Assembly: GCA_008632985.1 (NCBI GenBank)
Contig: QPGO01000067.1
Span: forward strand, 124,001 to 154,948
Direction of reading: 5' to 3'
DNA length: 30,948 nt
DNA from: Psammoneis japonica
Taxonomy: Eukaryota
Shown: piece after piece, positions 1,198 through 30,756 of the stretch
Layout: each line of letters begins with the position of its first letter
Position numbering within the stretch: the stretch's first letter is position 1
Made by a program: the position numbers and the translations under genes
The notes under the pieces: generated by a model
Database searches by the model: none
What the model was told of the DNA's origin: nothing
Seen by the model: the letters and a program-made list of their open reading frames with translations, nothing else

Positions 1198-1831
1198 GGT
1201 ACAATCGATTGTTTGTTTTGGTTGCTGTCTCGAGAAAATGAGAACTGCGAATGGCCTCGAGCAAACGCCGCAGCAAGACAATACCAGATGTACCTGTACC
1301 TACTGTATCATAGGATTCGGATCTGGAAGGACCACAAAAGATCGTGAGAACGCAAATACTGGATACTACTTGTTGACACTTCGTCGCAGACGCGCGGGAA
1401 TCTCGTTTGAAATTTCACATGTTTAGGCCAAAAGTGGCCTTTTGAGGCTGTTTTGGGGCTATTGGATACGTCAGCTCAGTTTAGGTAACAAGAGCTCCAG
1501 GCCTAAGAGAGGCTAAGTTTCACCGATGTTTTGACGGTGAGTACTAGTAGAGAGCTAGTAGTAGAGTCGCACCGTAGATCCAATCAATTGTGTTCATCAA
1601 GAGCATGATTGGTGCCGATCTTTCGGTTTCAGGGCCTGGTAAAGCCTCATGACGCTCCGGTAGCTTCAGAACAAGGGACTGACGGCCATTTTCGCACGAT
1701 TCAGTCACGATGGAAGTGAGGAAAGGGACCGGAGTTACCCGCACAACGTAGTTCAGAGCGAAAGAATTGAAAAGACATCACCGAGCATCCATCATTTCCC
1801 GATTAGAGAGCAAATCGTTGCCGGCTTGACA

Positions 1832-2449
1832 ATGAATAACCCGTGCAAACAGATTTTCATTATGGTCACTCTCCTTGCGATCCGCGTTGCGCCTGCCGAG
1901 GTGTGCAATTCCAATGCTGACTGTTCCAATGGGGGTGCATGCGAATCTTTTGATTTCGCCTCTGGAGGTCACCCTGCCATTGAGGCAAAGTGTAAATGCC
2001 AAATGGGCTTTTGGGGCGAACGGTGCGAGAAAACATGCCCCTTGCGGTGCGAGAATGGCGGTCAGTGCGAGCTCGAATCGGATCTTCACGGGAATTTGTC
2101 CGAAGCGTCTGATTTTGTCTGTGAATGTCCAAAATCCTTTCAAGGTCCACTCTGTAAGGACCTTAAAAATGACAAGGGGGAGTCTTCGCCCGCAGCGGCT
2201 CCAACACCAAACACAAACGACAGCAGTTCCAGCTCACCCTTGTCCGCCGGGGCTGTTGCTGCGATTGTGGTCGGCAGCATCGTCCTAGTGGCACTGTTTG
2301 TATTTGGTGTAGCCTTGAGAATTTATAGAAGTCGCAATGCAGAAACACAGAAAGGACGTGAGGAGACGGATGAAGCGGTCCTTCCACATGACGAGGGAGC
2401 TGCTCAAGAAGACGACACGTCATCTTTTAAAGATGAACCTATAGCGTAG
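1832..2449 (+). CDS. EGF-like domain single-pass membrane protein
   Basis: Signal peptide, two EGF-type Cys patterns (CSNGGAC...CKCQMGFWGERC and CENGGQC...CECPKSFQGPLC), a Ser/Pro linker, a TM helix AVAAIVVGSIVLVALFVFGVAL and an acidic tail. First ATG at 1832. Confidence 0.85.
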   Translation: MNNPCKQIFIMVTLLAIRVAPAEVCNSNADCSNGGACESFDFASGGHPAIEAKCKCQMGFWGERCEKTCPLRCENGGQCELESDLHGNLSEASDFVCECPKSFQGPLCKDLKNDKGESSPAAAPTPNTNDSSSSSPLSAGAVAAIVVGSIVLVALFVFGVALRIYRSRNAETQKGREETDEAVLPHDEGAAQEDDTSSFKDEPIA

Positions 2450-2450
2450 G

Positions 2451-2821
2451 TTAGTGATAACGTTCAACAAAGAGTATGCTACAGATCGGATGAACCGCAC
2501 TTGGTCGCAAGTAGGCTGACAGGATGCTGAATTTGAGCGCGAAGCCTCCCGCCAAATTCACGGATCTAGCAGGGAAGACAAGAACAATGAGATGTCTAGA
2601 GGGTGCCGTACAATTGCGGTGTTGGTCGCCCTTTCCGCAAGCTCGTCTTGACAGACAATGACCATGCCCACAAACACATGAAACACTTCTTGTTAAACAT
2701 CATTTTCACCATTTTCAGTTGCAATGCCCCTCCCTGGTGCAGCACTGTAGAAGTGGAGCATTCACTGGTCACCTCTTGCACACGAAAAGCACTGTGAAAG
2801 TTCAGCACCATGCTCAACACA
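2451..2821 (+). repeat. Dispersed ~370-bp repeat, copy 1 (paralog at 20184-20551)
   Basis: Collinear shared blocks such as cgttcaacaa, atgctacagatcggatgaac, cacggatctag, ttgcggtgttggtcgcccttt, acctcttgca and tcagcaccatgctc, in direct orientation with small indels. Confidence 0.9.
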
Positions 2822-4820
2822 AGAAACCAGATGCAGCAAACCCAGCAGCGAGTTCACTTCTGGGAAGTGCCACGGTGATGCCTTCTTGACGTGCTCTTTG
2901 AGCAGCCATGTCTCAAATTCCAGCTGGAACCCACAGGGGATGAAGTGATTTTTGGACATGTCAATGAGTTGGATGGGGCAGAGGCAGCTGTCATGTGAGA
3001 GGGAGTCAGCAATCACATTCTGTTTTCCCAGAAATCACCAGCCAGAGTGTGTGCAATCTCCAGTGGGATGATGGCACTGTCATCATCAAAGTTTGACATC
3101 TGGATCTAGCCAACGGCTGATGTGCCATTGCCATCAGAGCCAGCAGCCCAACTCCACTTGAGGGAAGTCCAAATGAAGGTCCATGCAATGCATGGTCATT
3201 GTCAGGCAACAATGCAGCATGCCAAAAATTTCAGTGTGTTGAGGGCAGCATGATGGCACAAGTGAGGTGGCCGTTCCCAGCATCATCACAGGGCTGCAGA
3301 TGTGGCACAGAGTCTCCCACCAAGGCAGATTTGATTTGGAGCAAAGCATGACAGCACTCAGGCTGGTGCCACCTGGTGCTGCACAGTGGAGAAATGTCAA
3401 CCAGAGAAACAAGGCAGCACATTGAGCCAGGGACAGTGGTGCTGCACTGTGACATTGTTTTGAGCAGTGTGCAGAGCCTGCCAGAGGTGACTGAGGAAGT
3501 GATGTGTGTGTGGCAGGCATGACAAGTGCCATGTGGTTAAAGCATCTGACCAACTCCAGCTGGGGCTGGCTGGGCAAAAGCCATGCAAGGACAGTGTGGA
3601 TGTTGGAAGCTGTCCAGGCCACTGCTTTGTTGTGTGACAAGGTGGTGGACAAGTCACATGTGCTGAAAAGCCAGCCAAAAACTGCTTGTGCTTTGGCAGA
3701 GGGGTGGCTTCAACTGGAAATTTGGCAAGGGAAACAAAGAAAACCCTTCTGACAAATGGCCTTGAACTTGAACTGCAAAGCTGGTTGGCCAAGTGAGTGC
3801 AAGACAAATGGGATGACCATGCTGCCCTGACCACAGCTCTGCTCAAGAAAGGTGCTGAAGATGCTGTTGACAAAGCAGCCAAACTTGGGGAGATGAGTCA
3901 AGCAGAAGGAAGTGACAGCCCACTCATCAGTGGGAGAGAAGGCAATGTCAGCACTGTCTGGTGGCAGTGTGGAAGCTGCTAAGATCAATGTTTGGCAGAG
4001 AGAGACTTCAGTGCAAAATTTTGTGCTGGAGTTGCCACACAGAGCAACCTCACAATTTGGCTCATCCCCAAGAAAGGCTCCAAAATCTGGGAAAGATTGC
4101 AGCAAAACACCTGATGTGGGTCCAGCTGGGCTCTGCCTTGCCATCAAAAAAGACAGACCTGTTGAGCACATGTGGTGGCATTTCCAGTGGCAGCAACAGT
4201 CCTCTGGCTGGCTCTGGAACATGCATGACAACACACAAGACAAATGGCCTGCCTGACAACCATGTTTTCCATTGAAAAGACTTGGGTGGGCCCCAAGAAC
4301 AACCCAGTGGTTTGGTTTGCTGGGATCTGCAGCAAGAAGTCACAGAATCACACACAATGCAGTGGCAGCACCACCCTGCTTGCAAGGCGCACCCAGCAAA
4401 TGGAGCTGAGGAGGCCAAGAAGGTTGCACAACCACCATGGTGCAACAAGTTGTGCACAACTTGCCAACAAGACACTGGCTGATCTGGGGCCAAGTGGTGT
4501 CAAGACACATCTCCAAAATGCCTGCAATGTTGGCCTGAATCTTGTCCATCATGATCTGGGAGCAGGTGATGTTGAAGTTGCCCCCACTTTTGTTGCAGGA
4601 TTGCCTGCTCTCACCAAAGGCCCAATGCCTGGTCCAGCAGCTGGAGCTTTTTGAAGACAAGGGATTGCCAACTGCTTTGTTTGCAGGAAAGTTGGAGCAA
4701 CCAATCATTGGACCCCTGGAAGGGGTGTGGGATGACAGCCAAGAGCTGAGCAGACTGCCAAGCAGCAGCTTGCAAACATGGGAAAGAGCTCTCACTCATG
4801 GTTGGGGAACTGCTTCCTTG

Positions 4821-4821
4821 A

Positions 4822-4868
<47 letters not shown>
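4821..4868 (+). repeat. (AAAG)12 microsatellite
   Basis: Perfect tetranucleotide run read directly. Confidence 0.97.
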
Positions 4869-4869
<1 letters not shown>

Positions 4870-7800
4870 GAAAAAGGCACACAGCTTGCATCAAACTGAA
4901 AAGGCAAAAGAAACAACTTGCCCTGCCTCAAAGAAAACCCCAGTCATTTTGAGTCATGTCAGTGACAGCTGGCATCATTCAGAGGAGCTTTCACTGGTGA
5001 GGAACCAGCAGAAGAACAAACCAACTGCTTCTTCTGATGAGGAGACCCTGATGGTCTTTGACTCACAAAGCTGTTGGAGCTGCACAAAGGGATGCATGGC
5101 CCAACAGGAGCTCTGTTTGTGTGCACATCTGGCATGTTTTGTTCTTTCCACATCCTGCTCAGAGAACAAAGCATTCATGTCATGGATTCATGTCATGGTG
5201 TCAAAGCCAACAGTCTTTTTCTGGATGCACCAAATCAGCAGGATCAAGAGCTGCACACATGACCAAATGATGAGGCAACACATTTGCAAAAGCCTTGTTT
5301 CACATGATCAGGCATGTTGACACCTGAACAACTTGTCAATTGGCAGTGCTCAAGCAGCAGCCAGCAAAGAAGTCACAATGAGAACAGGATTCCAAGTGCC
5401 TCAAAAGAACAAGAAGAAGGAGGCTGTCCAAGTGCTGGGTCATTGAAGTCAATGAGGGGAGGCTGTCCTTCACTCATTGGGGCCCATCTCCAAAGGTGGT
5501 GCTGCAGGATGTGCAGAGCCATTGCTTCCAACTGCAGCATGGCCAGCCACAGATGACCTGCAAACTTGATGAGAGCAGAAATGTGGGCCACCACCTGCAA
5601 AGCCAAGGATGACTTCTAAGCACAAAGCATGCACAAGCATGCTTCAAACACAAAAGCATTGAGTTTGGGCCAGCTTGCAGCAAAGGTTCAGTGCCCATCA
5701 CAAAGAAGAGCAGACACCTCCACTGGAGACAAAGCTTTTTTGAAGGAACAAAAGCAACTTCCAACTGCTGAGTGGAGGTTGCAGAGCAGCCTTCAACCCA
5801 GGAACACGTCAAACCCAGAAAAAGCACACACATGCAGATGCTTCTAGAGAAGACATGTGGAGCTTCTCCATGCAGAAACTGCCAATGTGCAGTTGCACCA
5901 AAAAGTGGGCATGTCAGTTGCAAGAATGTGGGGGATGAGGCACAAACAGAGAGGTGACTGTGCCATGAAGCCACACTGGGAGCCTGTGTTGCTGACCCAT
6001 TGGATGGAGCTTCAATTGTCCCTCCTCAGCATGGGAGCCTGTGTGGTGCAGGGATGAGCAGGGGCCATTTGCCACCAGCCTGCAGCAGAAATTTGTTCAA
6101 AATGTTTGTTGCATGGGCTGTGGGAGTCCAACAAACTTGGAGCAGTGGCGCCATCAAGCACAGGTGGAGGAGGTGGGTGTGCATTCATGGAGTCACAACT
6201 GGGATGCAAATTGACTCACCTGAGAGCCATTTGGTCCCCACCTCAAGGCATGTGCAGAGTGGGAAGAACCTGGTTTCCAAGCAAGCAGTGCCCAGCACAT
6301 CACAAGCAGCAGTGTCCATGTTTTCTTTTCACCACACACACCATTGCTGTTGACTTGGCCCTGTGCCAAGATGCAGAAAGGACTGCAGCAGAGACATGTG
6401 ACAGGCAATGAGCTGATGGGCTGCATGAGAGCTGGGTCCATGTGCCAGTCAACTGGGCTGGAGCTGGGGCATTGAAATTCACTCTTCTGGGATCAGGCAA
6501 CCCAGTTTGCCAAATTTTTCATGTCGGGGTGGTTGAGACAGGGTAATTTGTGTGACTGTCATTCTGGCTGCAGTTTGCACAACAAGGTCCAGCAAAGAAT
6601 TGTCTGGCACAGACCACTGAACCAAAAAGTTTGGGGCAGTCTCTGACACAGCACATGGTTTTCCTTGCACTGTGAGTCAGGTGTTGCTGTGCCTCAGTCA
6701 TGTGATCATTCTTGACTGTAGGACAGGAGTTTGTTTGGCTTTTTGGCGTGCTGTGGCTTTGCCCTTTGCCTGCTCAGTTTGACGATGCTTGATGCATTCC
6801 AGCTGCAGATGGGACTCTGTGTGGTGCTGGGCCTGCAGAGTTGTGCAGTGCATCAGCTCTGCAGTGAAGCTAGGGGCAACTTTGTGCTTGTTCAAGCTCC
6901 TCCATGCTTGAAGCACATGCCATTTCTTTTGCCTGGCTGCACTCTGCAGATGTTGAAGAGCACAACCAGCCAATTCTTGTTGTTGGAAATGGCTGCAACA
7001 AAAAGCCTTTGGCTTTGCAAGCAGAGAGTTTGAGGCCATTTTGCAATGGAGCACATGTGGAAATGCATCACATGATTTGACAATGTTCATGCTGCAGCCC
7101 AGCAGTGAAAGGTCCCACCCAGAGCTGGGGAGTGTGTCATGCATCTGCCAGGCTTCCTGGTGAACTGGCCAAGGTGAGGGTGGGCATCACAGCCGAAGCT
7201 GGTGCACTGCAGTGCACAAGAAAGGAGTTGCCTTGTTTGTTGCCCAGGTGGTGTTTCATGCCCTCTGAGAGGTCATTTGGCAGGTGAGAGGGGCTGAAAT
7301 GAACACCAGCAATTTTCTTTGCCAAAGACAATGAGATCTTGATTGTGAAGCATGGGTGACCCAACTGCTTGTGCATGTCTTGGACCCTCACATGTCATCT
7401 CATCTAGATGGCTCTCTGGGTGGCTCTCTTTTGGGCCTGAGCAATGGCTGTGTGAACATGTGGCAAGTTTTGTTGATGGGCTGCTTGGCAACATGACATG
7501 AGCTTCTGCAAGCAGTTTGCACTGAAGTGGCCACTTGGTGAGAAGTTTGTTTTGTGGCACTGGTGCTCCTGCACCCCTGCAGCTGGGTTGCTGCTCCTCC
7601 TTGGTTTGCTGCAGCAGCTGACAAGGAAAGCAGAAACAGGGGTGCTGCAAGGCAGCCACTGTCTTTGTCCTTTCAAGCTGTCTGCTTTTTGTCATCATGC
7701 AAAAGCCACAAAGAACAGCTGTGCTGGTCACAGCTTGCAAGCATTTGATGGTTCTGGAAGGAGGTGAGTCAGGCAGCCATCCATGAGTGGGCAGACATGA

Positions 7801-8929
7801 GCTGGTCAACAGCCCTTGCATCATCTCCTGTTCTGCAGGAGCACAGTTGTTGAAGAACTTCTCATTTGTCAGCATGTGCAGCCCCCCCCCCCTCCTTTTG
7901 AATTGCTGCCCATCATTGCAAACCACAACAGCACTGATGGATCAAATTTTAACCCATCAAAGCTCAAAACATGCCAGCATTGTTGACTGTCCCATCTCAA
8001 TGGCCCTCTTCCATCAAATGGCTACAAAAATTTAGCATCTGCTTTCTCACAAAGTGAAGAGTGAGCTGACAAGTTGATGTTGAATCCAGTGGTGCATGTG
8101 ACATTGACATGACAGTGTCTGACAAATTGTCTCGGTCATGGTTTCATGTCAATGCACAAAAACACTTTTTGAAAAGATGTGATGGCTTGACATTGCTGAT
8201 CAGACCCCACTGGTTGCTGCACACAATGAATTGAAAGAGCCACAGTCAGGGGCAGCTGTTCCCAAGTCCAACATTGGATGTTGAAATCACTTCCATGTCA
8301 ATGACAAGACAATCAATGGTTTTTCCAAGCCTTGGTGCCAAGCATCAAGAATTTGAGATGAACGTTCAAGAACTCACAATGATGGGAGCTTGCACACTTC
8401 AAAGAAAACATTGACATGAACATGAGGCAGAAGGCATCAAATGTTCCCCAGAGTTGGCAACCAGTTGCATGATTGGTGACACCTGTGCAGCTTGGGTGAT
8501 CCTCTCTCTCAGAAGCCAAAGAAGTGAACATGGCACAGCAGTGACATTTAGATTCTTGCTCGAACTGTTGTCAATCGAGAAAATTCATGGTGAATCCTGT
8601 GGTTGACAATGTCACAGTTTGTTGTGCAAAAAGCTTGAGAGACTTTGCAGCACACCTGCATCACTTTTATCCTTGGACAAGGGGGGGGGGCACACCCCTT
8701 GTGCATGACAGCTGCACCAGAATTCCTTTGCATGTTGCTTGGTGTCAAAAAGCATGCACCAAATCTTTGAGGCACCAAAGAAGTCAAAACCCATCCACTC
8801 AAGTTGCAAACGCTCATCGCATTGGTCATGCAACTGTGAAATGGACAGGCATGGACAGCCACACCCCTGCTCATGTGATGAAAATGCAAATGCATTGTGC
8901 ACATGTGAGAGGACAAAAAGGCCAAGGTT

Positions 8930-11137
8930 GTTGGCTGCCACCCAGACGGGAAACATTTGCCGTCTGGGCATCCAGCACAATTTGGGGCACAGTCTTCATG
9001 ACATGCAAATTCAGAGCAACAACAGCAACTGGCAATGCATCCACCAGAGCAGCTTGGGCTGGGACAGTCTGCTGTCATGGCACACTGGACGACATCAGAC
9101 TTCCAGCCAAAAAAGCAGCATTCACCATCAATGCATCTGTCGAAATGGCCATCAGACTTTGGGTCATGCTGCTCACACTGCCTGTCACTTGTGCATGGCA
9201 GCTTGCAAATGTTGTGGGTGCACTTCACGGGAGCTTCTTCACATTCCCCTTGAATTTCTCCAGTGCACTTCCAGTCGCAAGGCACACATGGCATGCACTC
9301 AATGTGCTCTGAACATCCCCCCCGTGCAACATCCTCACCTTGCATGCAGATGTTGCAGAATCGCAAAACGCTTGTTCATCAGACATGCAATGATCATTGT
9401 GATCACATCTTCCTGTGCAGGTCTTGTTGATGCACTGGGGCAATCATGACAGTCAGTGCATCATCTTGATTTGGAAGGTAAAACTTGCTTGTGCTCTGCA
9501 CCTTTGTTGGACAATCATCTTCCTCAAACTTTAGCATGTGAGTCACACTGCATTCAGACTTCCCCTGACCAGGAAAAGTCATGCTGTTTGTCAGATTGAA
9601 CTCTGTGTCGACACATGACTCGTTGTCCAAACCTTTAAATGAGCCCTTACTTGCTCCAATTGTGCGAGACTCTCCCTCAGCATTGACTTGTTTCCGACCA
9701 TCTGGAAACAATGTCGTTGCAACTACAAACCAACCCTGTTCTTGCCATAAGAATTTAGAGACGATTTTGCAGGTTCCAGTGTCATCTGGCCTCAACTTGC
9801 CTTTCAGAGTTTCATTCTTCTTATCTGTGGTCTCTCTCTCACTGACAGGGGTCTGTCCACATTTGTCAAGAGGGGTTTCAGTGTCGAGTCTGTAGAAATG
9901 TGACTCCACTTTGCTGACGTGAGTGGTTTTTGCTGTGTTTGCAGCAGTGCACTCAATTTTCTACAAGGACGAGCTTTTTGCAAGGGCAGAGGCATTGTTC
10001 CGCTGCAGCAATGTTGTCATTGACTTCTTGAATTGCCACAATCGAATGTCAGAGCTCCTCTCTGACAAAAGGATCATTGTCACTGTGGCAGAGTCTAGCC
10101 GAAGCAGGAAGACAAACCATCTGCAACAAAAGAGCTTGAGCAAGAGTTCCAGCAAACCAGCGTTTGCAGCTCCGGTGCTGCACCGGGTCAGCGTTGTCCA
10201 TGAATGTGTCAAGCACACAGTTTTCATGCTTTGCACCATGCTGACACACTCCAGTTTCGCGTCCGCTTGTCTTGTCATTGTTTGCAAACTTGCATCTCTT
10301 GGGACAGGAAGAGCTGTCACCGCACGCACATCCACACAACATCCGGATGAGATCTTGGGGACGATTCTGCAGCTGGTTGCAGACAAAAGGAAAGTCATCA
10401 CTGCAGAGCTCGGCAAGCAACTTTAACTCAGGATCAGGTGCACCACCTTGATCCACAGAATCAAGGAGAAAGCAAATGGAGCATTCACAGGCTGCGCATC
10501 CAGAGCAGACGTGGTCCAACTGAATCCTGATGTCGTCCAACACGTTGTCATTGATCACATCCTCTGTGTTTCAAAACTGACTTGCTGTCTGCGTGGCCAT
10601 CTCATCAAGCTTGGCATTCAGCTTGCTGAACTCCTCCTTGATGAGCACTTGCGTTGGGTCCATAGATTCACGCCCTGGAAATGGAGAAGCCAGGGACAAA
10701 GCAGGTCCGAGAACACTGCTTGCGGCTGCCAAACCCTTCACCAGATTACCCAGATCTGCAAAGACATTGGCAGCATCCAAGATGGCATCAAAAACAGTGC
10801 CGTAACTTGCAAGAAGAACTGAGGCCTGATCGGTCAATTTGTGCTTGGTGAGAGACTTGGAACAGATCATTTCTCCTCCGTCGCACACTGGATCACTGGG
10901 GCTTAAAGGGAATCCTCTTGAGTCCACCACACACAGGGGGACAAGGTCATCACTGTCTGGATCATTGCTTTTCTCGCCTTTCTTCAAGGCGCGGGTTTCC
11001 TCAAAACAATTGCTGGTGAGGAGGGGTCTGGAACAAGCATCCACAACATCCATCCTTGAGCCACAAACATTCCCAGCAAGGACAGCTCATGGGAGGAGGA
11101 GTGCCAGGGCAGGAAGCACCAAGATGGAGATTTTCAT
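8930..11137 (-). pseudogene. Decayed large secreted protein gene: signal peptide, cephalotoxin/rapunzel-like helical segment, Cys-rich C-terminal repeats
   Basis: ATG at 11137 gives MKISILVLPALALLLP*AVLAG (TGA probably from CGA). It continues through ORFs 10571-11053, 10049-10558, 9403-9909, 9225-9443 and 8548-9366 with stops and frameshifts. Contains LGPALSLASPF..DPTQVLIKEEFSKLNAKLD and repeated C-x3-C / C-xDGxC units. The 3' end is approximate. Confidence 0.65.
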
Positions 11138-12605
11138 TTTGTGAGAGCATGCATTGGGTTCAGTTTGTTCATGCCAGAAAGAAGCAATGAAACAAAAGTT
11201 GACAATGCAGGATGGATGATGGAGTTTGGGCTGCCCCGACAACCGGGTTTGCATTGACAAATGCAATTCCAGCCTCTGCCGGCAGTTGAGTTTCGTTCCA
11301 TGCATTGACAGCCCACAAGATCCCTTTGGCTTTGCATCAACGATGATGTTTTTGCTTTCATCCACTTTGCGATGTGCAACAATCTGATGTGCACTTTGAT
11401 CCACATCATTTTCATTCTCACCTTTTTGTGTGTGTGTTCGGACAAGGTTTGGACGCGACTCTCTGAACAAAAATCATGCAAACCACCACATCACATGGAT
11501 TGATTGCAGAATGTTCCAAAGAAAGGCATGAGTGAAAAAGACAGAAAAACATGCCGAAGGCATGGTTTGGCAGAAAATTCCTCGCACATGTGCAAAATGT
11601 CACGTTTGCATCAACAAACTACACACACCATGCACTGCACCTGCTTCCTGCCTCACTTGACGTTAAAGGGCACACGAGCACACTGCTGCTAGAGCCTGGA
11701 GAGTGGACCACTCCTCTCCACTGGCAGCAGAGCTCTGGCACTTGCAGGGCCCTGCATCATCATGCCTGCCGCAGTGCATTCCTTGTGTCTGTGCGTGAGT
11801 CATCGTCAGCGCTTCTGCATGCACTGCATTGCAAGCCCCAAAACCCGCACTGCGGCATTTGCTGGCTCTGTCTAATCCAAAGATTTGAGCATTGTGATGA
11901 CCCCCCAAACTTGCTCCTTTCCCCCTTTCCTCTTTTTGTTGCATGCCCAAGCAGCAACAGATGCCATGCCCATCACCACCTCCCCGCGCACTTTGTTGCA
12001 AGACATCTTGCAGCTTGTTCCACAAGGCGCGGCTTGAGAAGGTTTGTGCACCAATGCCAATGCACTGCCTCTTTCAAAGATGTTGCACAATTCAGTGGAT
12101 GCTGCCATCAATGCTGCAGGTGCAGTTTCAGTCATGCCGCTGTTGTCAACAACAGCTGCTGTGAGCCTTTTGCCGTGGAGCACCAAATTGTGCACCCTCC
12201 AAAAAGGAATGGATGTGCTCGACTCAAACCCTTTGCAAGGGTGGCCAGATTTCTTGGCACAAAACAGGCTGCTGGGAATGTCCGCAATGTCAAACAAGCC
12301 AGGGCAGCCCTTGATTCCTTGACCATGGCAACAAGCCCACATCAGATGGCCTGGTGGACAAAAAACGCAGCTTTTCAGAAGCCTTGGCAGCTGGGTTGCC
12401 CAACTCTCTAGATGAGCCTGGTCAGACAAAGATTTCACATCATGTCTGACCACACTGACTCACCTGGAGAGCTCCTTTGACCAAAAGGACTTTGGCTGAC
12501 ACATGAAGTGTTGTCAACAGTGTGGCAAAGAAGCTGTTCTCAGCACACTCTTCCAACCCCCCAGCATGACAAAACATGCACAGCTTCTTCTTTTTGGGGT
12601 CATCA

Positions 12606-13019
12606 AAAATGACTGTCTTTGAGAGTCAACACCAATCCAGCGTTGAGGTGTGCAATTTTTTCCATTTGCTCCACAAGCCGTGATGGATTAAAGCCCATGT
12701 CTGGCTTGCCATTTTCTCCCTTGAACACCTCAACATCTGGCTTGAATGTTGCAGAAGTTCCTGTTTTCCTCTTTGACTGCAACTTCTGGACAAGTTTGAG
12801 CTTGGAGTGCACCAAGTCATCATTGAGCAATGTCCGTGTCATCGGTGGCTGATGATGGCTTGCCTGAAGGGTGCTTTTCAAGTGTGCCCCCACTCAAATT
12901 TCATGTGACACATTTCTGTCCCCCTTGCAATCCACACAGTCATGTCTGCAAAAGCACTCAAGGCATTCACTGCTGATGCACTCACTCCATGCAAACCACC
13001 AGACACTTTGTGACCATCA
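12606..13019 (-). pseudogene. gyrB: DNA gyrase subunit B ATPase-domain exon fragment (nuclear, organelle-type), degenerate
   Basis: DGHKVSGGLHGVSASAVNALS matches GYKVSGGLHGVGVSVVNALS. KTGTSATFKPD..F and IAHLNAGL match LAYLNxG. Frameshift near 12890. Preceded by a pyrimidine tract and CAG acceptor (13020-13037). Confidence 0.88.
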
Positions 13020-13727
13020 CTGCCAAACAAAGAGAATTGTCTCTGACAAGGAAGGTGGTGCATTTTGTGGTCATTGACCAAACACCTCATTGTTGTCCCA
13101 GAAAACTCTCCAAGGAGGTGTGGGTGGCTTTTGTGGAATGCTTGAAAAATCACCTGGGTGTTGTGGTCTTGCCAAGGTCAAAGAGGAAACACTGTGGCTT
13201 TGAATTTGTGAGGACATCAGAGATGAAAACAAATGAGGGCTGGCAACACTGCATTTCTTCCAATGGCTCCAGCACAATGCCAAAAAATGAAGAACATCCA
13301 ACACAGGTGTTTGTGCAAATGTGGATTTTTTGCAAGAGTCATTGAGTGCATTTTGGCATCAATGTTTGATTTATTTGAAGGTGTGGCAATGTGCCAGCTT
13401 GGCACTGTTGCCAAAGAAGGAGTTGCCACAACTGCTGCAGAAAAAGTGCACATTGTGACATCTTGACCCAGCCTCTGCTCAATGCAAAATGGAAGCTTTT
13501 GATGCATCTGACGGTGCTCTTTGCTCCTGTCATCACAAAGGTGCCATGGCTGTTGTTGTTTGCCCTCCTTCAGCACAGCAAGTCAAGAGCTTCCACACTG
13601 GACATGCATCAGGCAAGTGCAGAAACTGCTCATCTTGTGCAGTGTGCAGTGCCAAATCTCAGACAACAAACTGGCAGGCAAGCACCAGCAACCACATTTC
13701 AACAACTGTCCAAAACATTGGGAGAAG

Positions 13728-13918
13728 TCTCCAGCCAGCTGCTGGCTGAAGAATCTTGAGCAGAATTTGCACTGAAAGAGTCTGTCAATCTGTGTGTTGA
13801 GGTTTTTTTGGTGAATGCTGGATGGACTCAATGTCTTTTGCGTACGTAAAAATTGTGCTGACAAACCCCCCAAATGCGCTGACAAGCAGACTTTTTTTAG
13901 CCAGCAGCTGGCTGGAGA
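13728..13918. repeat. Inverted pair of identical 20-bp arms (13728-13747 and 13899-13918), each containing the palindrome AGCCAGC-W-GCTGGCT
   Basis: tctccagccagctgctggct is the reverse complement of agccagcagctggctggaga. Confidence 0.8.
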
Positions 13919-15840
13919 GACTTCCACAAGACAGGGCACTCAACATGTGCACTGCAAAACATCCCAGCTGCTCCCCTGATCCTCAAGGGGTGGCATGATG
14001 AGGGCACATAAAACTTGAACCCACACATGGTGCAAAAGAAATCAGAGGCCTGCTGGAGCATTTTGCAAGGACTGTCAGCCCATGTTTCTCTGTTGAAAAA
14101 GTTGCAGTGTCATTTGCCTCACATTGTCATTTGGTGGGCAAAAATCACTGTGCTGAAATGCAACAGGAGGCTCACCTTGCCACTGGCTCTGGCATTTTAA
14201 CATTGGCAGATCACACTCAGAATGCTTGGCACCCAAGTTTAATCCATGGATTCAAGGCAACTGCCACAGCAATGGCCAAGCCATGCCAACAAAAGGGCAA
14301 GTGTGAAAAGTGAGTTTGTGGACAACAAAGGTCAGAAAACATGTTGCTGTCATCTTTTGCACCAGCCTCATGTCAAGACTGCACCACCACACATTTTCAT
14401 TTGAAATCATTTTTGCTTGATTAAAGCCAGTGGCCTGCTGTGTCAAAATGGAAAACAGCTCATGATGATCTGGGACAGTGCAAATGGCTGTGCTGCCAAA
14501 TGGCTCTGCAGCTGGTTGACACCACACTTTCCATCTGTGCAGAGTGCCAGGTTTGTTTTGACTGTGCTGTGCACACTCTGACCACAAATGATTTTTTTTT
14601 ATTTTCTTGTGAACTTCATTGTGATGAGCCAAACAAAGCTGAGATGCCTTCATCTCCCATCTTGTGACATTGCTTCACACCATTTTGCATTGACCAAGTG
14701 CAGCAAGACCAGCTGTGTCATGCCTGGGACGGGCCAGCTGTTTGGTGCGACAGTTGAGAAAGCCATTGCAAGTCTGTGATCACTCTGCTAGCACAAGTCA
14801 GCACTGGTGCTGGCAAAGATTTGCACTTGCAGAGGATGAAAAGGCTCTTGAAGTGTGCTGGTTGGCTCTCAAGGAGTGTTGTCTTCATTTGCAGATGAGC
14901 TTGCCAGCTTCATCTCAGCACTGCCAGGTTGAGCAGCAGATCTTTCACCTGATGCTGAGACTTTTTCTGAAAAAACTCTTTTGCAACAGCAAGCTTTTCA
15001 GCTGTGCTCACCACCTGGTTGGCTCCAGATGTTGCAAAAGCAAGCAAACCTGACATGCAGCTCTGCACTTCTGTCAATGCCCGCACTTCACAACAAGCAC
15101 TCTTCAAGGTTCTCTGTTGCAGCTGCCCCTCCCCCCTCCAAGTTGTTCACTTGCTGCATCTGTTGTGATTGACTGACAAGAAGGCCCCTGCTTGGGCCAG
15201 CTTGTCCTTGGCTTCTGCGCAGCAATGCAGAGATGCCACTTCTCCTCATGTGACCCCCCCGTTGATGCTTTGCCTTTTTTGTCAGCCATTCTGGCTGTGT
15301 GGCAGCTGCAGTGCTCTTCTTGCCAGACCTGCTCTTTTTGCCCTGGTGGGAGCAGAAAGTGCCTTGTGAACTCCTGCAGCAGAGTGCTGGTGGCATCTTT
15401 TGCCAACACCCTCTTCTTTCTTCTTCTTCTTGTTTGGGTGACCAAGGTGCTTCTTTTTGCAGAAGAAGTCTCAGTCATGAACAAGAGCTTTGCTTTCTTT
15501 GCATCTTCCTGCTTTTTTTTGGGGGGGGGGTTCGATTTTTGAAAGAGAGCACGCGGGATGTCCCTTGTTGGCAACCTGCTTGTCTTGCACCGTGCAGAGG
15601 CGCCATTGGCCATGGGGAAACATGAAACATCTCGAGGGAAAAAAATGACATCATGATGGAATTTCGGAATCGAAAATGATTTTTCCTGGCCAGCGCGGGA
15701 TGAGATCTTTCAAAAGGGCGGGAAAATAGAACATTGAAAATTTTCAGCTCTGAATTTCTGCATGGCAAGGCGCCGAAAATCTTTTGAAAAAATGACGGCG
15801 ACAGCACCCAGCACAGAAAGTTGATGAAATAGAAAGTGCA

Positions 15841-18800
15841 ATGGCGTCTCGTTCAACGCATCCTTCTCCTCAAGCCATGACAAAGACGGAAGACATCGAT
15901 GACCACTTTAAAGACGCAGTGACAACTCCAAAACAGGAGGAGAACTATTCCTGCATAATTGAACCCGGTGACGTTGTGTGGGCATTGAACGGAAACAGAA
16001 ATGAGGCTCACGAAGCGACCGTATTGAAAGTGGATGTAACCAACAATGTCGCACAAGTCAAGTGGCAGAGATCTCTCTACAAGGACATGGTACCGTTAGA
16101 TCAGATCCGACCCATGTTTGATCTTGCCGAGGTCAGTGGCGATAATACGAAGAATTCTTCAAGACGAACAAGACGCAAGTCTGGTCGAGTACTTGGACTG
16201 AAACAGTTTATTCAACGAAGAATCGCCATGTTGTTTGGTGGCCACGTCTATTTTGGGACAGTCACAGAATGTCGCGAAGGAGAAGATGGGGAAGAAACGT
16301 TGTGGCATGTCAAGTATGACGATGGCGATGCCGAAGATATGAATCGTCAAGAACTGGATGCAGCCTTGGAGTTGTACGAGTTGCGAAGGCACACGGAGTC
16401 GCCCTTACTCAAGGAAGATGGCAGTCAAGCCTTGTTGAAGCAAGACACGTCAGACGACGCTACTACAAGTATTTCGCCCGACAAAACCAAGTCAAAGCGC
16501 ATAAACAACACCGACCGTCCAACACCGAGTACCAACCGATGGTATGCCATGAGGCAAAGACGATTCAAGAAAAGAAGAAAGCTCATGTCGAATCATCAAC
16601 GTCCATCCTCTCAAGGTCTAGAGGATAATCATGACGATTCGTCACGCCGTCCGGGCTTGGTGCCACGGGTGTCTCTGTCTCCTGACCATGTTGATCACGA
16701 AGACGAGGATGCTGACCCCAACGTTGAAGGATCATGCACCACGTTCAAGGATCCGTTCGAATTTTCGGATGATAATGACGATTCTTCACGCCGTCCGGTT
16801 TTGGTGAAACGGGTGTCTCTGTCTCCTGACCATGCTAAACAAGATGACGAGGATGCTGACGACTCCAACGTTGAAGTTGATCCGTTCGAATTTCAGGATG
16901 ATACCGTCAGTGTTTCGGATTGTTCTTGTCATGAAGTTAATAGCGACAATTGTGATTTCTCTGATGAGGTATCTTCCACAAGCCGTGACTGTGAGTCGTC
17001 TTTTGAGTGTGACTCTTGTTGCAGCAGCAGTGACGTGTCATTTGACGGATACGAGGAGGAAGAGGAGGAGGAAGAAGAGGAGGATTCATCATTGTTGCAA
17101 GATGCTTTACTACCTTCTCCAGAGGAACAGCAGAGAATCTTGGACTCGATCGAGTCTCCGAGTGACAAGACTTTGCAATCTCTTCTTTGGTCCCTTGGTT
17201 TTAGCTTTACTCTGTTGCCCCATCAATTTGAGGGGGTGCGAGCGGTTGCGGGTGTTTCCAACACCTTTCCCTTGAACGATGCCGCCGCCGCCACCGCTGA
17301 AGATTACTTTAATTCTTCTACGGACCCCACCACAATTCTCAAAAATTATAACCCCACCGATGAGACTAGTACTCGGGGGATACTACTAGCGGATAGCATG
17401 GGCCTTGGAAAAACCGTTCAAGTGAGTACGACGTTTGCTGTATTCGTGATGTTTTTTGGTCTTCTACTCGTTTCTATTCACACTCATTGTTTGTGTGTCA
17501 AAGTCAATCGGTGGTGCTATACTTCGGAACAAGCTGTGCGAAGCACAAGGAAAGGAGGGTCTACCAACTGTTATTGTGGCTCCCAATGAAAACGTACTGA
17601 CGCAATGGGGGGAAACACTTCTAAATGCTGGTGTGAGTTCCGAGAAAATTTTCTATTTCAGACCCAGAAAACATTGTGGGTTTGACGGGCCGAACTTTAT
17701 CCTCATGACACGGTACAATCTCCAGGGTGAAACCAAGGCTTTGATGGAGAGAATTACCGATAGAGACAAGGGCAACCAAAGCTTGGTGTCGTCGAAGCTT
17801 TTCCCATATGCAACCAAAGATTTACTTTACAAAATGAAGAACCAATACGAGTAGGACCAACATCTTCTGCAAGCGTTGATTTGCTGTACGTTGCGCTAAC
17901 TCTCTCTTTGTTTTATGATATATCAGATCATTTGTCGGGAAAGCTAGGAATCAACTCAAGTTGCGCGATGAAAAAGAAGTGGCCGATGTTGTTGTCTCTC
18001 GGCTTCTCCTTCCGTTTGTAAACAGAGATACACTCCAACAAGTGTTTCGTACTGTTCTTATCGACGAAGCTCACTTTCTCCGGAGCATTTGCTCATATTG
18101 GGGCTTGGGCGCAGCCATGATGGGTCTTCACGGGGAACGTGTTGTACCCCTTACTGGCACGCCATACAACAACGGGCCCAAGGATATGGCGGCTTTAATG
18201 ACGTTTATCGACCCATCCAAGCCTGCTGCCAAAACACTTTGGTGGGCGAATGCTACAAAGTTGGGAACGCCAGCCGACATTGTTCAATCCGTCGGGGAAT
18301 GGAGAACGCATTACATGTTACGACGAGGAAAAGATGTGCTAAAGAAGCAGCTTCCTGATAAGAAGGTTTTCTCCATACCAGTGTCCTCGTATCCAGCTGA
18401 GCTGTATGTGTACAACTATTTCGAACAACAAATGTTAGAAAAGTTGGCTGAGTTTGGTAAACACGATTCATCGGAAATCATCATTCTAAGAAACCTATTC
18501 AAATCAATGCTTGCAACGTTGTCGTGTCAGCGAATGGCCTTAATCCACCCGATGCTTCCTGGTGGACGAGAGATGACAAAAATGTTCTCACCATCTCGCC
18601 GAAAAATGGTCAAAATGGAAGAACGGCCGTGTGTCTGTGTGTGCTGTACTCCAGTGTCCCGTCCTTCTGTACCATTACAGAGAAAAAGTGAGACAGGGGC
18701 ATCAAAACAGAGTCTACCAAACAAGGAATTGCGACTTTGTTACAATATGGACCTAGATGATTCAGATTTGGACGATGGCGGAGAGGAGGAAGTCTACGGT

Positions 18801-20028
18801 GCAACTTGCGAGGAAGACGAATTAGTGCCTCTCTGCGTTGAGGAGAGGTGCGACAGCACCGTTCCTCACTATGCACACAGGAAGTGTCGAGACGAATTGC
18901 GAAGGGATAAACAGCAGTGCCCACGATGTGAGTCGCTTGTGATGCAGATCTGGCATATTGCTTGCCATCATCCACCTTTCCGCTTCTTGCTACAGTGAAC
19001 CTCATATTTCTTGTGCTCGTTGTTCGCCGTACCCCTGCAGGCGTGGATATGAAAAGGAGAGTCCACAACATGACCAACAATAATGAAGACGGTTCTGCTC
19101 CTTTTGTCTCCCAGCGCACTACTTATTGCCAGCATGTCAGTGTATCCCCATCAATGCCCGGTGGCTTCAAAGCATCCGCAAAGATCGAAAGTGTGATCAA
19201 TTGGTTTCGATGCGTTCCGACGGATGAGAAGGTAAATAATACAACAATGTGTGTTGATAGCAGATCTAGGCTCAGCGTCGTCTAACAGCGAGTCTTGCAT
19301 TACGTTTGATACAGGCGATCATTCTGAGCTTTTTCAAAGGTGGGCTAGACTTGATTGAGGGTATTTTGGTAGAGCATCTAGAGGTAGGCTGTGCTAGGTA
19401 AGAATCCGTGTCTCCATTGCAATCATACTTCAACATATGCGACGTACGTGCACTAAAGCCTTCGTCGGAAATGACAATCGCGTCTCTTAGGTTCGATGGT
19501 GATGTGAACGCAAAAGTCAGGGCACAGGAGCTACAAAGGTTCAAGACAAACGCTGATTGTCGCGTACTACTCGCAAGCGTTCAATGTGGGGGTACCGGGT
19601 TGAATATCGTCGAAGCAAATAATGTGTGCTTCGTAGATAGATGGTTTAATCCTTGTGTGCACGAGCAGGCCATGGATCGTTGTCATCGCATCAAACAGCA
19701 AAAGGAAGTAAAGGTTGTATTTCATGACTGTTCAAAGACTGTCGATCAAGTCATGTCGCAGATCAACAAAATCAAGTCCGAAAACGCCTCTATTGTTCTC
19801 GCGGACGGCACTGCACTAGGCCAAACTACGGGAGGAATTAAGTTCAAAGATATGAATGGTATGATTGGGAGTTTGCTCCGAGAGGTTAGAACGCAAAGGA
19901 TGGAATCGCCAAATGATCAGCCGCTGAGCCAAGCGAATCTAGATGACATGGAAACGGAAGAGAAACGAATGGAGAAAGAATTAGCTAAGGCTATCAAAAA
20001 AGCCAGAATGCGCGTCGGATCAAGCTAA
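15841..20028 (+). CDS. SNF2-family ATPase (Rad5/Rad16-like with a Cys/His RING-like insert) with two N-terminal Tudor-like domains; 6 exons, ~1246 aa
   Basis: Exons 15841-17421, 17504-17850, 17927-18927, 19041-19231, 19315-19397 and 19491-20028. All introns are GT-AG (76-113 nt) and the frame is preserved (3741 nt). Motifs LLPHQFEGV, GILLADSMGLGKT, LIDEAH, LTGTPYNN, MLRR, SAKI, FDG, GGTGLN, DRWFNP and QAMDRCHRIKQ. Tudor-like segments PGDVVWA..VKW and YFGTV..WHVKYDDGDAED. Confidence 0.92.
16624..16901 (+). repeat. Intragenic tandem duplication (~145 bp, ~47 aa unit) in SNF2 exon 1
   Basis: DDSSRRPGLVPRVSLSPDH...DPFEFSD is followed by DDSSRRPVLVKRVSLSPDH...DPFEFQD. Confidence 0.9.
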
Positions 20029-20183: not shown

Positions 20184-20551
20184 TTGGTGATGGCGTTCAA
20201 CAAGGAGCATGCTACAGATCGGATGAACAGGCACTTCGTCGCGACTAGGATGGCGGAATGCTGAATATCCCGCCAAACTCACGGATCTAGTAGGAAGAAC
20301 AAGAACGATGAGATATCTAGAGGTTGCCGCAGGCTTGCGGTGTTGGTCGCCCTTTCAGCGAGCAAGTCTTGAGATTGAATAGACAGCGACAATGCCCTCA
20401 AGTACACTCTAATTAACATCGTTTTCACTATTTTTAAGCAATTTCTTCCGGCAAACTACGTAGCGGTAATGCACATGGTAGTATTCATTGGTTACCTCTT
20501 GCATACGTAGAGTACTGTTCTAGTTCAGCACTCAGCACCATGCTCGACACA
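20184..20551 (+). repeat. Dispersed ~370-bp repeat, copy 2 (paralog at 2451-2821)
   Basis: Collinear with 2451-2821. Its right part retains TA and CG sites that copy 1 has lost. Confidence 0.9.
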
Positions 20552-25533: not shown

Positions 25534-25689
25534 GACTCCAACGATTGACGTCACCGTGGACATGATTTTTTGATAAATACAAATTATTTTAAAGTCTGAA
25601 TAAATTTATTTTTCACGTTTTGAAATACTTAGGTGAGTTTTGAGTTTGTTCTGACTTCAACCCGCGTGGCGAAGGTTGTCAGCCTTCAC
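25534..25689. repeat. 156-bp direct repeat, copy A
   Basis: Identical base for base to 30601-30756. AT-rich, with TGACGTCA at 25546-25553. Confidence 0.97.
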
Positions 25690-27900
25690 ACCTTCCGGGC
25701 AGCATTCTGCAGTCCAAGATGCTGCAACCGCGAGGCCATTTGGTGAGCAACTTGCCAGGCGGATTCCTCATTAGCCCCCATTCCGCGCAAGTCATCAACG
25801 AATGTTTTCATGTCGCCAGCAATTTCCTTGCGACGAGAATTCCACTTCATCACGAATGGTTTCTCCGTCTGGAAGTTGGGATCCCCTGGCAAGTTTAGGA
25901 GCAGCTTGTCGCATCCCATGACACTGGAGAGTCAGTTTGGATCGCCTCTGGCAATCTCATCGGCCCAACAAAATGCCCTCACCACCAAGTGAGGGCTGGG
26001 CCGCATCCCCATGAACAAACGGTTCCAACACTCGAACCAGGGCGTGCCCGTCGAGATCGACTCCTGGGACCCGAGACATGGCTTGAGAGGCGTTAAGTCG
26101 ATCCCCGCATGTGGCCGAATGTTGGGATCCATGAAGAAGTTTAAAAACATGTCGCCTGGGTCGAGATCCACTGAAAAGGTGGCACAAGTCATGCACCCCA
26201 GAACCGACGCAGGAGTGGGCAAGAAAAACGAGGGTGCCCAGAGGGCGTCGTTTGACCCCGAGGAGGTTCCGTCACAAACCATTCGCACGTCTTCAACGAT
26301 TTCCACCAAGCGACCATTCTGGGGTTCCACACGGACGGTTTTTGGGACCCAAAAACAATCAGTTAGACTGACCACCCTCCCACGATGGATGCAACCTTGG
26401 TCTCGGACCTTTTGAATCTTGTCCACCATCCTAAGAATCTCGTGCTCGGACCCCCGGATTCTCTGCCGTTGGCGATTGCGAGGGAGAGGGCCCTTGACAA
26501 ATGTCTGGATCCCATCTCGAGCCCCCACCCGCTGTTCCGGAGTGGGCCACCGCCAGAACAAAAGAGACGAACCTCGGTCCCAACTCCACCAGGAGCTGTC
26601 CAACACTTGCACCAACACCTCAGTCCCAAGGTGTGCGTCTAGAAGCAAGGGTGGGAGTGGAGGGTGGCGGCAAACCCCCCCCCTGAAGACGCCCGGTGGC
26701 GTCCCCAAAACGTCGGCGTTGTGTCGCCAGCATGGCGACCCAAGTCGGACCATGCTCCCGGCACAGATGGCCCAGAAAAGACTGAAGGGTCTTTCGCCGC
26801 CACCACCGGTGCGCCAAGTCCCAAAGGGCTGGCAAAGCCTCACCAGACCCCGGGAAAATCAAAGTGATCCTCTCATCCCACAACCGGAAAGGAGGGGCTG
26901 CCGCATCCCCCTTTGCAGCTTTCACCGTTGTGAGGGACACGTCGATCCAAGTGTGGGGCAAATGGCGTCCGAGAGTCGGCAGCCACGTTCCGGCCTGGCG
27001 GACCGGGACCCCGACCTCCGTGTTGTCACACACCATGCCCCCAGGTTGCAACGAATTCCGGGGCGTGTGATCAACAAGCGCCTCCACAAAAAGTGTGAGG
27101 AGATTCAACGGAACAAGAGGAAATCCCCGCTCGAAAGCCTGATGCACCTGAGGCATGCGGAAACGCAGGGGAAAATCCCAGGCCGCCAATGTCTCATCCA
27201 CAGACAGTGTGCGGGTGACCCAACCTGTCGGCGACCGATGCGATGGGTGCACGACTGGTCGGGTCAGAAACTGTGGGTTGAGATGGTCGCCCTCATTGTA
27301 AAATTCCCCACTCGGGTGTTGTGGCGATGGCGACCCGGGTGGCTTGTGGTCGATGATGTGCCCAATGGACCGCCGCAGGCCTCCATCAAAGACCGGAGTG
27401 GGAACCCCCCGCCAGAAGAGTGCAGTCCGAAAGGAAGTGACACCGCCCACCACCGCATGTGCAATGTCCCACCGCTGCAACTGGTTTGAACCTAGAAGAC
27501 TGCGACGCGAAAACGCTCCCACAGGGATCATGATCAAAGATCCCGACCGCATTGCATGAGCTGCGGACTCAAGGAACGAAGGTGGCCCCGACACGAACAC
27601 AACATCAACCCGCCTGGTCAGTTGTTCAACCCTTGCCCATGAGACCCGTGCCAAGGAGGCATTCAATTGGTTCCGAAACAGTTCCACCAACAGAGAACCC
27701 CAGTGGGAGTCGTCGCAGCAGTGACAAATGGCAGGCCATTCCTTTGGTCGCAAGGACAAGAGCCAGATTGGGGGACCGGAGGCGAGAATCAAGCAAGATC
27801 CTTGAAAACAGAAGGCCTTTCTGCCCCGCATGATGTGCCTTGGGTTGTTCGGCCTGTCGAACGAGACCTGGCCCTCCCCCGTGTCCTCCGTTCCCCATGA
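25690..27900 (-). pseudogene. Retroelement pol/reverse transcriptase, frameshifted, with one internal stop and 3' truncation
   Basis: Motifs SSWWSWDRGSSLLFWRWP, FWVPK, DVRMVCDGTSSG.NDALWAPSFFLP, DLDPGDMFLNF, MGMRPSPH, FVDDLR and LQHLGLQNAARK. TGA at 25932-25934, frameshift near 26640-26700. Confidence 0.85.
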
Positions 27901-27903
27901 ATT

Positions 27904-30600: not shown

Positions 30601-30756
30601 GACTCCAACGATTGACGTCACCGTGGACATGATTTTTTGATAAATACAAATTATTTTAAAGTCTGAATAAATTTATTTTTCACGTTTTGAAATACTTAGG
30701 TGAGTTTTGAGTTTGTTCTGACTTCAACCCGCGTGGCGAAGGTTGTCAGCCTTCAC
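30601..30756. repeat. 156-bp direct repeat, copy B
   Basis: Identical to 25534-25689. Confidence 0.97.

Follow-up and report, generated by a model that had tools for sequence, protein, structure and literature searches.

To our knowledge, the targeted processes known to hypermutate DNA in eukaryotes all change C to T. These are repeat-induced point mutation (RIP) in fungi, deamination by AID/APOBEC enzymes and decay of 5-methylcytosine (5mC). Editing of retroelements by APOBEC proteins is reportedly a form of deaminase-driven hypermutation of mobile DNA. It can spare long terminal repeats (LTRs), as is seen with single-strand editing of retroviral complementary DNA (cDNA). Here, we describe a locus of the diatom Psammoneis japonica with a different footprint. 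The stretch analysed, called the window throughout, comprises 30,948 nt (GenBank assembly GCA_008632985.1, contig QPGO01000067.1, positions 124,001 to 154,948, forward strand). It contains an island of about 13 kb in which nearly all TA and CG dinucleotides have been replaced by CA or TG. With moderate confidence, we attribute the island to two separate, context-specific mutation processes that acted in place on dead intergenic DNA: CpG decay and a second process at TpA.

Several described activities touch on TpA or on CpG. ADARs are a metazoan family of RNA-editing adenosine deaminases that prefer a 5' U or A and a 3' G. The adenosine deaminases of transfer RNA (tRNA) act at U33-A34, which is an A after a U. 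The modified bases 5-hydroxymethyluracil (5hmU) and 5-formyluracil can mispair with G; we know of no 5hmU and no TET/JBP enzymes in diatoms. In dinoflagellates, TET/JBP enzymes produce 5hmU preferentially in TA and TC; alongside 5mC, this base marks repeats and silences transposons (PMC11572971). Diatoms methylate transposons at CpG via DNMT5a, and many carry a DNMT4 gene, which is RID-related and of unknown function (PMC9998398). Finally, CpG decay can indirectly lower the observed/expected ratio (o/e) of TpA. This is a mild ratio effect (Duret and Galtier 2000, as described in PMC3829696).

Results

TA and CG are depleted from a 13 kb island

The island and its middle block are as follows. 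Here and below, R is a purine and Y a pyrimidine.

2652..15726, no strand: island of TA and CG conversion to CA or TG, defined by counts, position lists, a repeat comparison and read contigs over both edges
8401..12700, no strand: middle block, where decay is less advanced (CG o/e 0.15-0.5; TA survival of 0.16 for mixed contexts and 0.45 for YTAR)

Dinucleotides were counted in the core of the island (2800-15400; 12,601 nt). Only 46 TA (o/e 0.06) and 109 CG (o/e 0.14) are present. At flank density, about 438 TA would be expected. Conversely, CA (1464; o/e 1.83) and TG (1418; o/e 1.84) are abundant. The left flank (1-2400) has 72 TA (o/e 0.53) and 164 CG (o/e 1.00). The right flank (16000-25500) has 342 TA (o/e 0.53) and 534 CG (o/e 0.98). 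The original prediction, made by eye, was that TA nearly disappears over 13 kb (about 45 remaining) while the flanking genes retain it. The counts bear this out, with 48 TA in 2610-15720 and the same o/e of 0.53 on both sides.

Other features of base composition are unremarkable. The G+C level is 0.46-0.52 in the core and 0.45-0.55 in the flanks. AA is not depleted (o/e 1.18 in the core, compared with 1.16-1.17 in the flanks) and neither is TC (o/e 0.94 in the island). Two simple explanations were rejected. A low TpA o/e arising as a ratio effect of CpG decay is ruled out, because the absolute TA count is down about tenfold. GC-biased gene conversion is ruled out because CG is lost and there is no parallel depletion of AA, AT and TT.

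The loss of CG is uneven. It is nearly complete in 3000-8100 and 12900-15200 but partial in approximately 8400-12700 (o/e 0.15-0.5). The middle block is probably younger than the rest of the island.

The altered bases are present in read-built contigs

A public run, X1, holds 94% of the words sampled from 11000-15000. Its short-read contigs match the window at 1-4809, 4880-12801, 12777-13747 and 13888-20000 with 0, 5, 0 and 3 differing letters, respectively. Both island edges are spanned. The mean word depth is 59-67, like that of the flank contigs. Raw reads that failed to support the assembled bases had been named as grounds for abandoning the prediction; the X1 contigs, built from reads, carry the island bases. 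Within the island, the assembly and X1 differ at six positions. Four are CG to TG or CA exchanges in either direction (6771, 7409, 9431 and 13933), one is a TA to CA exchange (11664) and one is a transversion. CpG sites in the island may still be changing, and the four exchanges at CpG are an indirect hint of cytosine methylation there. The differences at hypermutable steps could be allelic or strain polymorphism, or polishing errors.

These data bear on a technical explanation. Base-calling or assembly errors could have arisen at modified bases, with 5mC called as T and a modified A or T called as G or C. The island is probably methylated and systematic miscalls are known on some long-read platforms. 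Moreover, X1 may be the assembly's own sample, in which case it tests the assembler and the bases rather than a second individual. However, the X1 contigs over 1-20000 are single unbranched pieces with the same bases at a depth of 59-67. Conversion is essentially complete rather than partial. Furthermore, the pseudogenes described below also have frame changes, insertions or deletions and substitutions outside TA and CG. We regard an artefact as highly implausible.

The gap between the first two X1 contigs (4810-4879) coincides with a perfect (GAAA)12.5 microsatellite at 4820-4869. This microsatellite and one 13-mer, present twice, are the only tandem repeats in the island.

TA steps have been converted to CA or TG

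To polarise the changes we used sequences that have counterparts outside the island.

12581..13177, minus strand: GyrB pseudogene fragment, ATPase domain, approximately residues 88-210 of bacterial GyrB, in two frames (matches to PDB sequences)
2451..2821, plus strand: copy of a dispersed repeat over the left edge of the island; the first 200 nt keep most TA and CG, and conversion starts at 2652
20184..20551, plus strand: unmutated copy of this repeat, lying outside the island with 71% identity over 393 columns; reference for direction

The PDB sequence search aligned GHKVSGGLHGV in the window with GYKVSGGLHGV of 4urm_A (E 1.5e-6). Similarly, IAHLNAGL aligned with VAYLVAGL of 1kij_A (E 1.5e-4). 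Tyrosines conserved in solved GyrB structures are His or Cys in the island fragment. Both Tyr to His examples given earlier for GyrB (GYKVSGG to GHKVSGG, and LAYLN to IAHLN) are confirmed by these alignments. When homologues of the GyrB fragment were sought with a word-index search for longer proteins, all 172 candidates fell short of E<=1e-3.

A second X1 contig (4483 nt) and a contig of another run, X2 (6254 nt), share about 87% identity with 12581-13016. Hence, an intact GyrB copy lies elsewhere in the genome. X2 is a run whose contigs omit GT..AG stretches, as spliced cDNA would. Between the island fragment and the intact copy, 29 differences are listed. Six are TA to CA or TG (three each), five are CG to TG or CA and 18 are of other types. 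In 12581-12880 the intact copy has six TA, all of which are lost from the window. Five of these count as CA or TG in the pooled test below.

The repeat pair gives a similar picture. From 2652 inward, the outside copy has 16 TA. Ten are CA in the island copy, one is kept and five are otherwise changed. Four of six CG became CA or TG. Before 2652, TA is kept at four of seven positions, converted at two and otherwise changed at one, and eight of 13 CG are kept. Conversion in 2652-2830 is strand-biased, with 10 CA and no TG.

For the pooled test, counts from the GyrB stretch were added to those from the repeat inward of 2652. Conversion to CA or TG is found at 15 of 22 TA steps and a single TA survives. 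Transitions at other A/T sites number nine of 180 (odds ratio 41, p 9e-12). For CG, conversion is found at eight of 11 steps, compared with transitions at nine of 139 other G/C sites (odds ratio 38.5). The per-site excess at TA is at least that of methyl-CpG decay. The possibility that a polarised spectrum would lack any excess at TA had been raised with the original prediction; the excess is 40-fold.

The same suggestion held that repeated DNA is targeted. This part is not supported. The intact GyrB copy was spared. Over most of its length the island was matched by no further contig at a likeness of 80% or more, although missing contig cover is little proof.

The repeat at 2451-2821 and 20184-20551 lies directly after the stop codons of two genes, which encode an EGF-domain protein and a Tudor-SNF2 protein. 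Either a mobile element or a 3' region common to both genes could account for it.

Surviving TA steps share a tetranucleotide context

The 46 TA that survive in the core are located between 3107 and 14789. We compared their flanking bases with the distribution in the flanks.

RTAY: 1 survivor in the core; 141 expected from the flanks; survival about 0.007
Mixed (RTAR or YTAY): 19 survivors in the core; 219 expected from the flanks; survival about 0.087
YTAR: 26 survivors in the core; 78 expected from the flanks; survival about 0.33

The contexts of the survivors differ from the flank distribution (chi-square p 5e-12). Furthermore, the order of survival, RTAY then mixed then YTAR, is repeated in all three sub-blocks of the core. 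The palindromes TTAA (10) and CTAG (8) make up 39% of survivors, compared with 10% of TA in the flank. ATAT, ATAC and GTAT are absent and GTAC occurs once. Back-mutation from CA or TG predicts near-even shares over the 16 contexts (4.9-7.8% each). Surviving CG steps have no comparable pattern, with 33 RCGY, 52 mixed and 24 YCGR in the core against 134, 386 and 178 in the flanks.

TA is lost without CG in a second domain

The window contains a second TA-depleted domain, R2, between two direct repeats.

25700..30480, minus strand: R2, with TA o/e 0.13, CG o/e 0.80 and G+C about 0.58
25534..25689, plus strand: direct repeat to the left of R2, 156 nt, keeps 8 TA, 100% identical to its partner
30601..30756, plus strand: direct repeat to the right of R2, 156 nt, keeps 8 TA, 100% identical to its partner

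The survivors in R2 have the bias seen in the island (RTAY 1, mixed 8, YTAR 19; p 2.5e-11). Since R2 has lost TA but keeps CpG, TA loss is independent of CpG loss. Approximately 17% of TA survives in R2, 16% in the middle block and 6% in the outer blocks of the island. The corresponding CG o/e values are approximately 0.8, 0.15-0.5 and 0.03. R2 and the middle block therefore resemble each other in TA survival and differ strongly in CG survival. An order in which TA is lost first and CpG decays later fits these values. The TA loss of R2 was either a burst or a TA-poor state inherited by this copy.

The CG series allows a second explanation of the island to be weighed. If an error-prone polymerase resembling Pol eta, which has a WA motif (W is A or T), were used at repaired sites of 5mC deamination, A:T to G:C changes would arise as collateral. 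Errors of Pol eta favour A after T or A, and TA and CG loss coincide in the main island. Repair that is efficient but error-prone could also leave the CpG of R2 intact. However, AA is undepleted in the island core (o/e 1.18 compared with 1.16-1.17), and the target is TA rather than WA. In addition, TA survival does not follow CG survival between blocks. A TA loss of about 93%, with a sharp gradient from RTAY to YTAR, is too specific for a polymerase error spectrum. We judge repair collateral to be quite improbable.

R2 and its repeats form a 5.2-kb unit (25534-30756), possibly a mobile element that has been hypermutated. On its minus strand are four long open reading frames (ORFs) of 637, 296, 427 and 308 codons, with three Tyr in 1668 residues. 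Pfam returned nothing above threshold for these ORFs and a PDB search gave no match better than E 0.5. No homologue of the 427-aa ORF was found among 8000 scored candidates. A protein atlas hinted at a C5 DNA methylase, but the score (0.81) fell below the 0.9 level and the hint is an unconfirmed lead.

Tyrosine codons are destroyed in a degraded gene

Loss of TA removes Tyr codons. Among six-frame codons, Tyr accounts for 0.08% in the core and 2.05% in the flank. Codons for His, Cys, Gln and Trp are increased and Arg is at half. TGA makes up 631 of the 702 stop triplets in the core (six frames). ORFs in the island are no longer than about 290 codons. The middle block contains a recognisable gene.

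9965..11086, minus strand: degraded gene belonging to a diatom-specific protein family of unknown function; a single frame interrupted by two in-frame TGA

A search of 1.8 billion representatives identified 40 relatives at E<=1e-3. The best is P0002 (886 aa; E 1.1e-35), and tblastn gave E 2.9e-40. One cluster member of the family is from the diatom Extubocellulus spinifer. Pfam recognised no family in the eight homologues that we compared. Consensus columns were defined by agreement of at least half among at least four homologues. All six Tyr consensus columns are replaced in the island gene, five by Cys and one by His. Two of these columns are invariant Tyr in all eight homologues. By comparison, all eight Cys consensus columns are retained.

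The homologues themselves contain 1.15-3.84% Tyr. For the closest homologue, the DNA gives TA o/e values of 0.52-0.56 and CG o/e values of 1.03-1.06. The scan for its locus used a single protein, the family alignment being too diverged for use. Source genes already poor in TA and Tyr had been put forward as an alternative to mutation. Neither the homologues nor the intact GyrB copy, which keeps its TA, are of this kind.

The same comparison addresses native composition. The island could be foreign DNA, or DNA with a special purpose, in which TA and CG were avoided from the start, perhaps as an escape from nucleases or RNA-decay factors. The identical repeats around R2 do permit an inherited TA-poor state. 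However, the direction of change is set by an intact copy in the same genome, by eight homologues and by the outside repeat copy. Replacement of Tyr by Cys or His at invariant Tyr columns contradicts native avoidance. The island has no long ORF, and TGA stops and frame changes interrupt the genes that can be recognised in it. Viral relatives were searched for and none were found for the island gene family (P0002) or for R2 (637-aa ORF). Native composition or selection is a very remote explanation.

We also considered a strand-specific half-site model. In this model A to G change in TAY is equivalent to T to C change in RTA. The model favours RCAR and YTGY as products over RTGR and YCAY. The core has 904 of the former and 590 of the latter, a ratio of 1.53. 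The flanks have ratios of 1.25 and 0.94 (pooled, about 1.18). Replacement of Tyr by Cys at five columns and by His at one fits the model. On the other hand, the ratio in R2 is 0.89 and only three of six polarised mixed-context events fit, which counts against the model. Support for the half-site model is mixed.

The island fills an intergenic gap

Two genes with normal TA and CG flank the island.

1826..2449, plus strand: left flanking gene with EGF-like domains; an X2 contig covers 1-2518
15841..20028, plus strand: right flanking gene with Tudor, SNF2 and Helicase_C domains and introns; an X2 contig runs from 15832 with four GT..AG stretches left out

The cDNA-like X2 contigs of these genes stop at 2518 and start at 15832, respectively. 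At the left edge, conversions begin at about 2652, within the repeat copy. At the right edge, CG returns from 15533 and TA from 15727. Hence, the island occupies the gap between two genes and its edge is not tied to an element boundary. A domain that spans the intergenic gap and ignores the boundary of an element speaks for mutation in place across a stretch of chromosome. No X2 contig lies on 2669-12006 or 14008-15341, although such gaps permit no inference about transcription of the island.

An alternative is that editing preceded integration. Here, the RNA or minus-strand cDNA of a retro-copy would be edited at U-A or T-A by a deaminase resembling ADAT/TadA or ADAR. Integrated copies of this kind would have piled up to form the island, with CpG lost later through methylation. 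R2 has the structure expected of this, because its interior has lost TA between identical 156-nt direct repeats that keep TA. Local strand bias is also consistent with such editing, both in 2652-2830 (10 CA, no TG) and in the predominance of Tyr to Cys (five) over Tyr to His (one). In addition, tRNA adenosine deaminases take A after U. The edges argue otherwise. Conversion begins within a repeat copy rather than at its end, and the limits of the island adjoin the ends of the cDNA-like contigs of the neighbouring genes. The GyrB stretch is hit on both strands within 120 nt (three TG and three CA). Neither a reverse transcriptase nor an integrase was found in the family scans of the island or R2. 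An ADAR-type footprint is also absent. A 5' T is required, survival is 0.33 for YTAR and 0.007 for RTAY, and the pyrimidine-preceded steps that survive best are YTAG and YTAA, the opposite of an ADAR preference for a 3' G. Editing before integration is unlikely, in our view.

Other content of the window

The island contains two short, high-copy dispersed repeats.

7000..7130, no strand: short high-copy dispersed repeat (summed word depth 876 in bin 6671-7337; joints and loose ends at 7020-7131)
13720..13920, no strand: a further short dispersed repeat of high copy number (bin 13341-14007 has a summed word depth of 2978; joints at 13719-13918, one of them to 7131)

The first has many diverged copies elsewhere in the genome. 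Both attract very many diverged X1 contigs, their summed depths of 876 and 2978 standing against about 60, and one contig joins 7131 to 13719. The two stretches, at approximately 7000-7130 and 13720-13920, belong to one high-copy family of short repeats whose island copies are depleted of TA and CG. In the middle block, 8551-9375 (minus strand) is a Cys-rich open frame of 275 codons for which no family was found; part of this Cys may formerly have been Tyr. A six-frame Pfam scan of the whole island, together with 56 stop-to-stop ORFs, gave only a spurious sub-threshold match to FOXO_KIX_bdg. Beyond the pseudogene, the degraded gene and the repeats, the island was without matches. Rfam had no match anywhere in the window.

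The protein encoded at 15841-20028 fuses a PTM/DIR17-like Tudor domain to an SNF2 ATPase and Helicase_C, the architecture of a chromatin remodeller. Its position beside the island is probably coincidental. Within the gene, a 94-nt stretch is directly repeated (16623-16716 and 16767-16860; 87% identical). Further genes of the window encode an S-adenosylmethionine-dependent methyltransferase and an epimerase-family protein. An 843-aa ORF at 22938-25469 has a sole homologue, a protein of Pseudo-nitzschia multiseries with 38% identity. Given the eukaryotic genes of the flanks, this homologue and the E. spinifer member of the island gene family, we take the window to be nuclear DNA of a diatom.

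Discussion

The comparisons show which way the bases changed, that TA was singled out, that survival depends on the tetranucleotide, that the domains are bounded with an edge not set by that of a repeat element, and that TA loss is independent of CpG loss. We favour two processes acting in place, as stated at the outset, though with reservations. In the first, methylated CpG would decay in the normal way to TpG or CpA. In the second, transitions at A:T pairs would turn TpA into CpA or TpG, with RTAY preferred and YTAR the weakest target. R2 shows that the second process can run without the first.

Several points weigh against this interpretation. The evidence is drawn entirely from a single window of 31 kb, and numbers in the polarised samples are small (22 TA steps and six Tyr columns). 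The intact GyrB copy was rebuilt from the listed substitutions only; about seven differences in the stretch, and 51 rows overall, lie beyond that list. Of the 29 listed GyrB differences, 18 are outside the TA and CG types, and the copies are also old and diverged. Context expectations were taken from coding flanks, which are a proxy for the original composition of the island. Lastly, the R2 repeats are 100% identical with eight TA each, which points to a burst or an inherited state and not to slow decay in place.

A 40-fold specificity and a palindromic four-base preference are unexpected from spontaneous chemistry or from polymerase error. For this reason we infer that the TpA agent is an enzyme or an enzymatically placed base modification. 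The candidate chemistries are three. Adenine deamination would turn T-A into T-I, which is read as T-G. A second possibility is a symmetric mark, on the adenine or thymine of R-T-A-Y, with a miscoding product. Alternatively, thymine might be oxidised to 5hmU or 5-formyluracil, for which dinoflagellate 5hmU is a precedent in both context and function. The limits of the domain would be set by chromatin state. The mechanical outcome would be destruction of all Tyr codons, TAA and TAG stops, TATA sequences and TA target sites.

The original prediction was of a genome-defence system that makes domain-restricted changes at TpA. Its central element stands, in that A:T to G:C change at TpA accompanies CpG decay (15 of 22 steps, compared with nine of 180 other sites). 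A defence role and any specific chemistry are not supported. We can conceive of a dedicated system for hypermutation at the DNA level in diatoms, or at least in this one. This would recognise R-T-A-Y in silent or newly arrived DNA, change A:T to G:C through adenine deamination or a mutagenic modification of thymine or adenine, and be the mirror image of fungal RIP. As a natural A:T to G:C editor, it would remove all Tyr codons, TATA boxes and insertion sites of the TA or TTAA type in a single pass. Under such a system, a 4.8-kb element would have been stripped of TA before its 156-nt terminal repeats came to differ by one base. We put this forward tentatively and think it doubtful. The term "reverse RIP" describes the direction of change and nothing further.

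Full-text literature searches found no description of domain-restricted TA to CA or TG mutation, with most subscription journals outside their coverage. If natural, context-specific A:T to G:C change does occur in bounded chromosomal domains, it would be a new class of mutagenesis and possibly a genome defence. It would imply that TpA is acted on by an undescribed enzyme or base modification in a major marine algal group, and it would provide a natural counterpart of engineered adenine base editors. Pseudogenes, transposon ages and isochore-like composition in diatom genomes would then be read differently. The preference for RTAY over YTAR is a fingerprint that can be searched for genome-wide and across species.

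Comparison with described systems

Mutation accumulation in Phaeodactylum has a GC to AT bias in which CG, CC and TG are mutagenic, with no effect at TA in the available text of PMC6604790. To the extent of that account, the island pattern is not the general diatom spectrum. Decay of methyl-CpG, as in the transposons of vertebrates, plants and diatoms, accounts for the CG half of the island (eight of 11 reference CG; CG o/e 0.14) and agrees with the CpG methylation of diatom transposons by DNMT5a. However, it does not remove TA, and R2 has lost TA while keeping CpG. APOBEC enzymes make C to T or G to A changes in TC or CC, whereas in the island C is altered only at CpG, and the A:T to G:C component is what is new.

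A-to-I editing, by ADAR, TadA/ADAT or in the sexual-stage messenger RNA of fungi, resembles the island in changing A to G after U or T. It differs in acting on RNA substrates. The island is hit on both strands and in non-transcribed spacer.

Fungal RIP is alike in that dinucleotide-specific transitions saturate bounded, non-functional DNA and wreck coding sequence. The changes themselves are opposed. RIP makes C:G to T:A changes, mainly CpA to TpA, and enriches TpA, whereas TpA o/e in the island is 0.06. In ascomycetes, RIP depends on RID/DIM-2 and takes place before meiosis. RIP also mutates both duplicates. Here, the intact GyrB copy keeps six TA and the outside repeat copy keeps 16.

Dinoflagellates represent another lineage of the stramenopile, alveolate and Rhizaria (SAR) group. 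Mutational erosion of TA is not reported in the accessible text of PMC11572971, unlike the situation in the island. TC, the other context of dinoflagellate 5hmU, is undepleted in the island. The TpA context of 5hmU matches that of the island.

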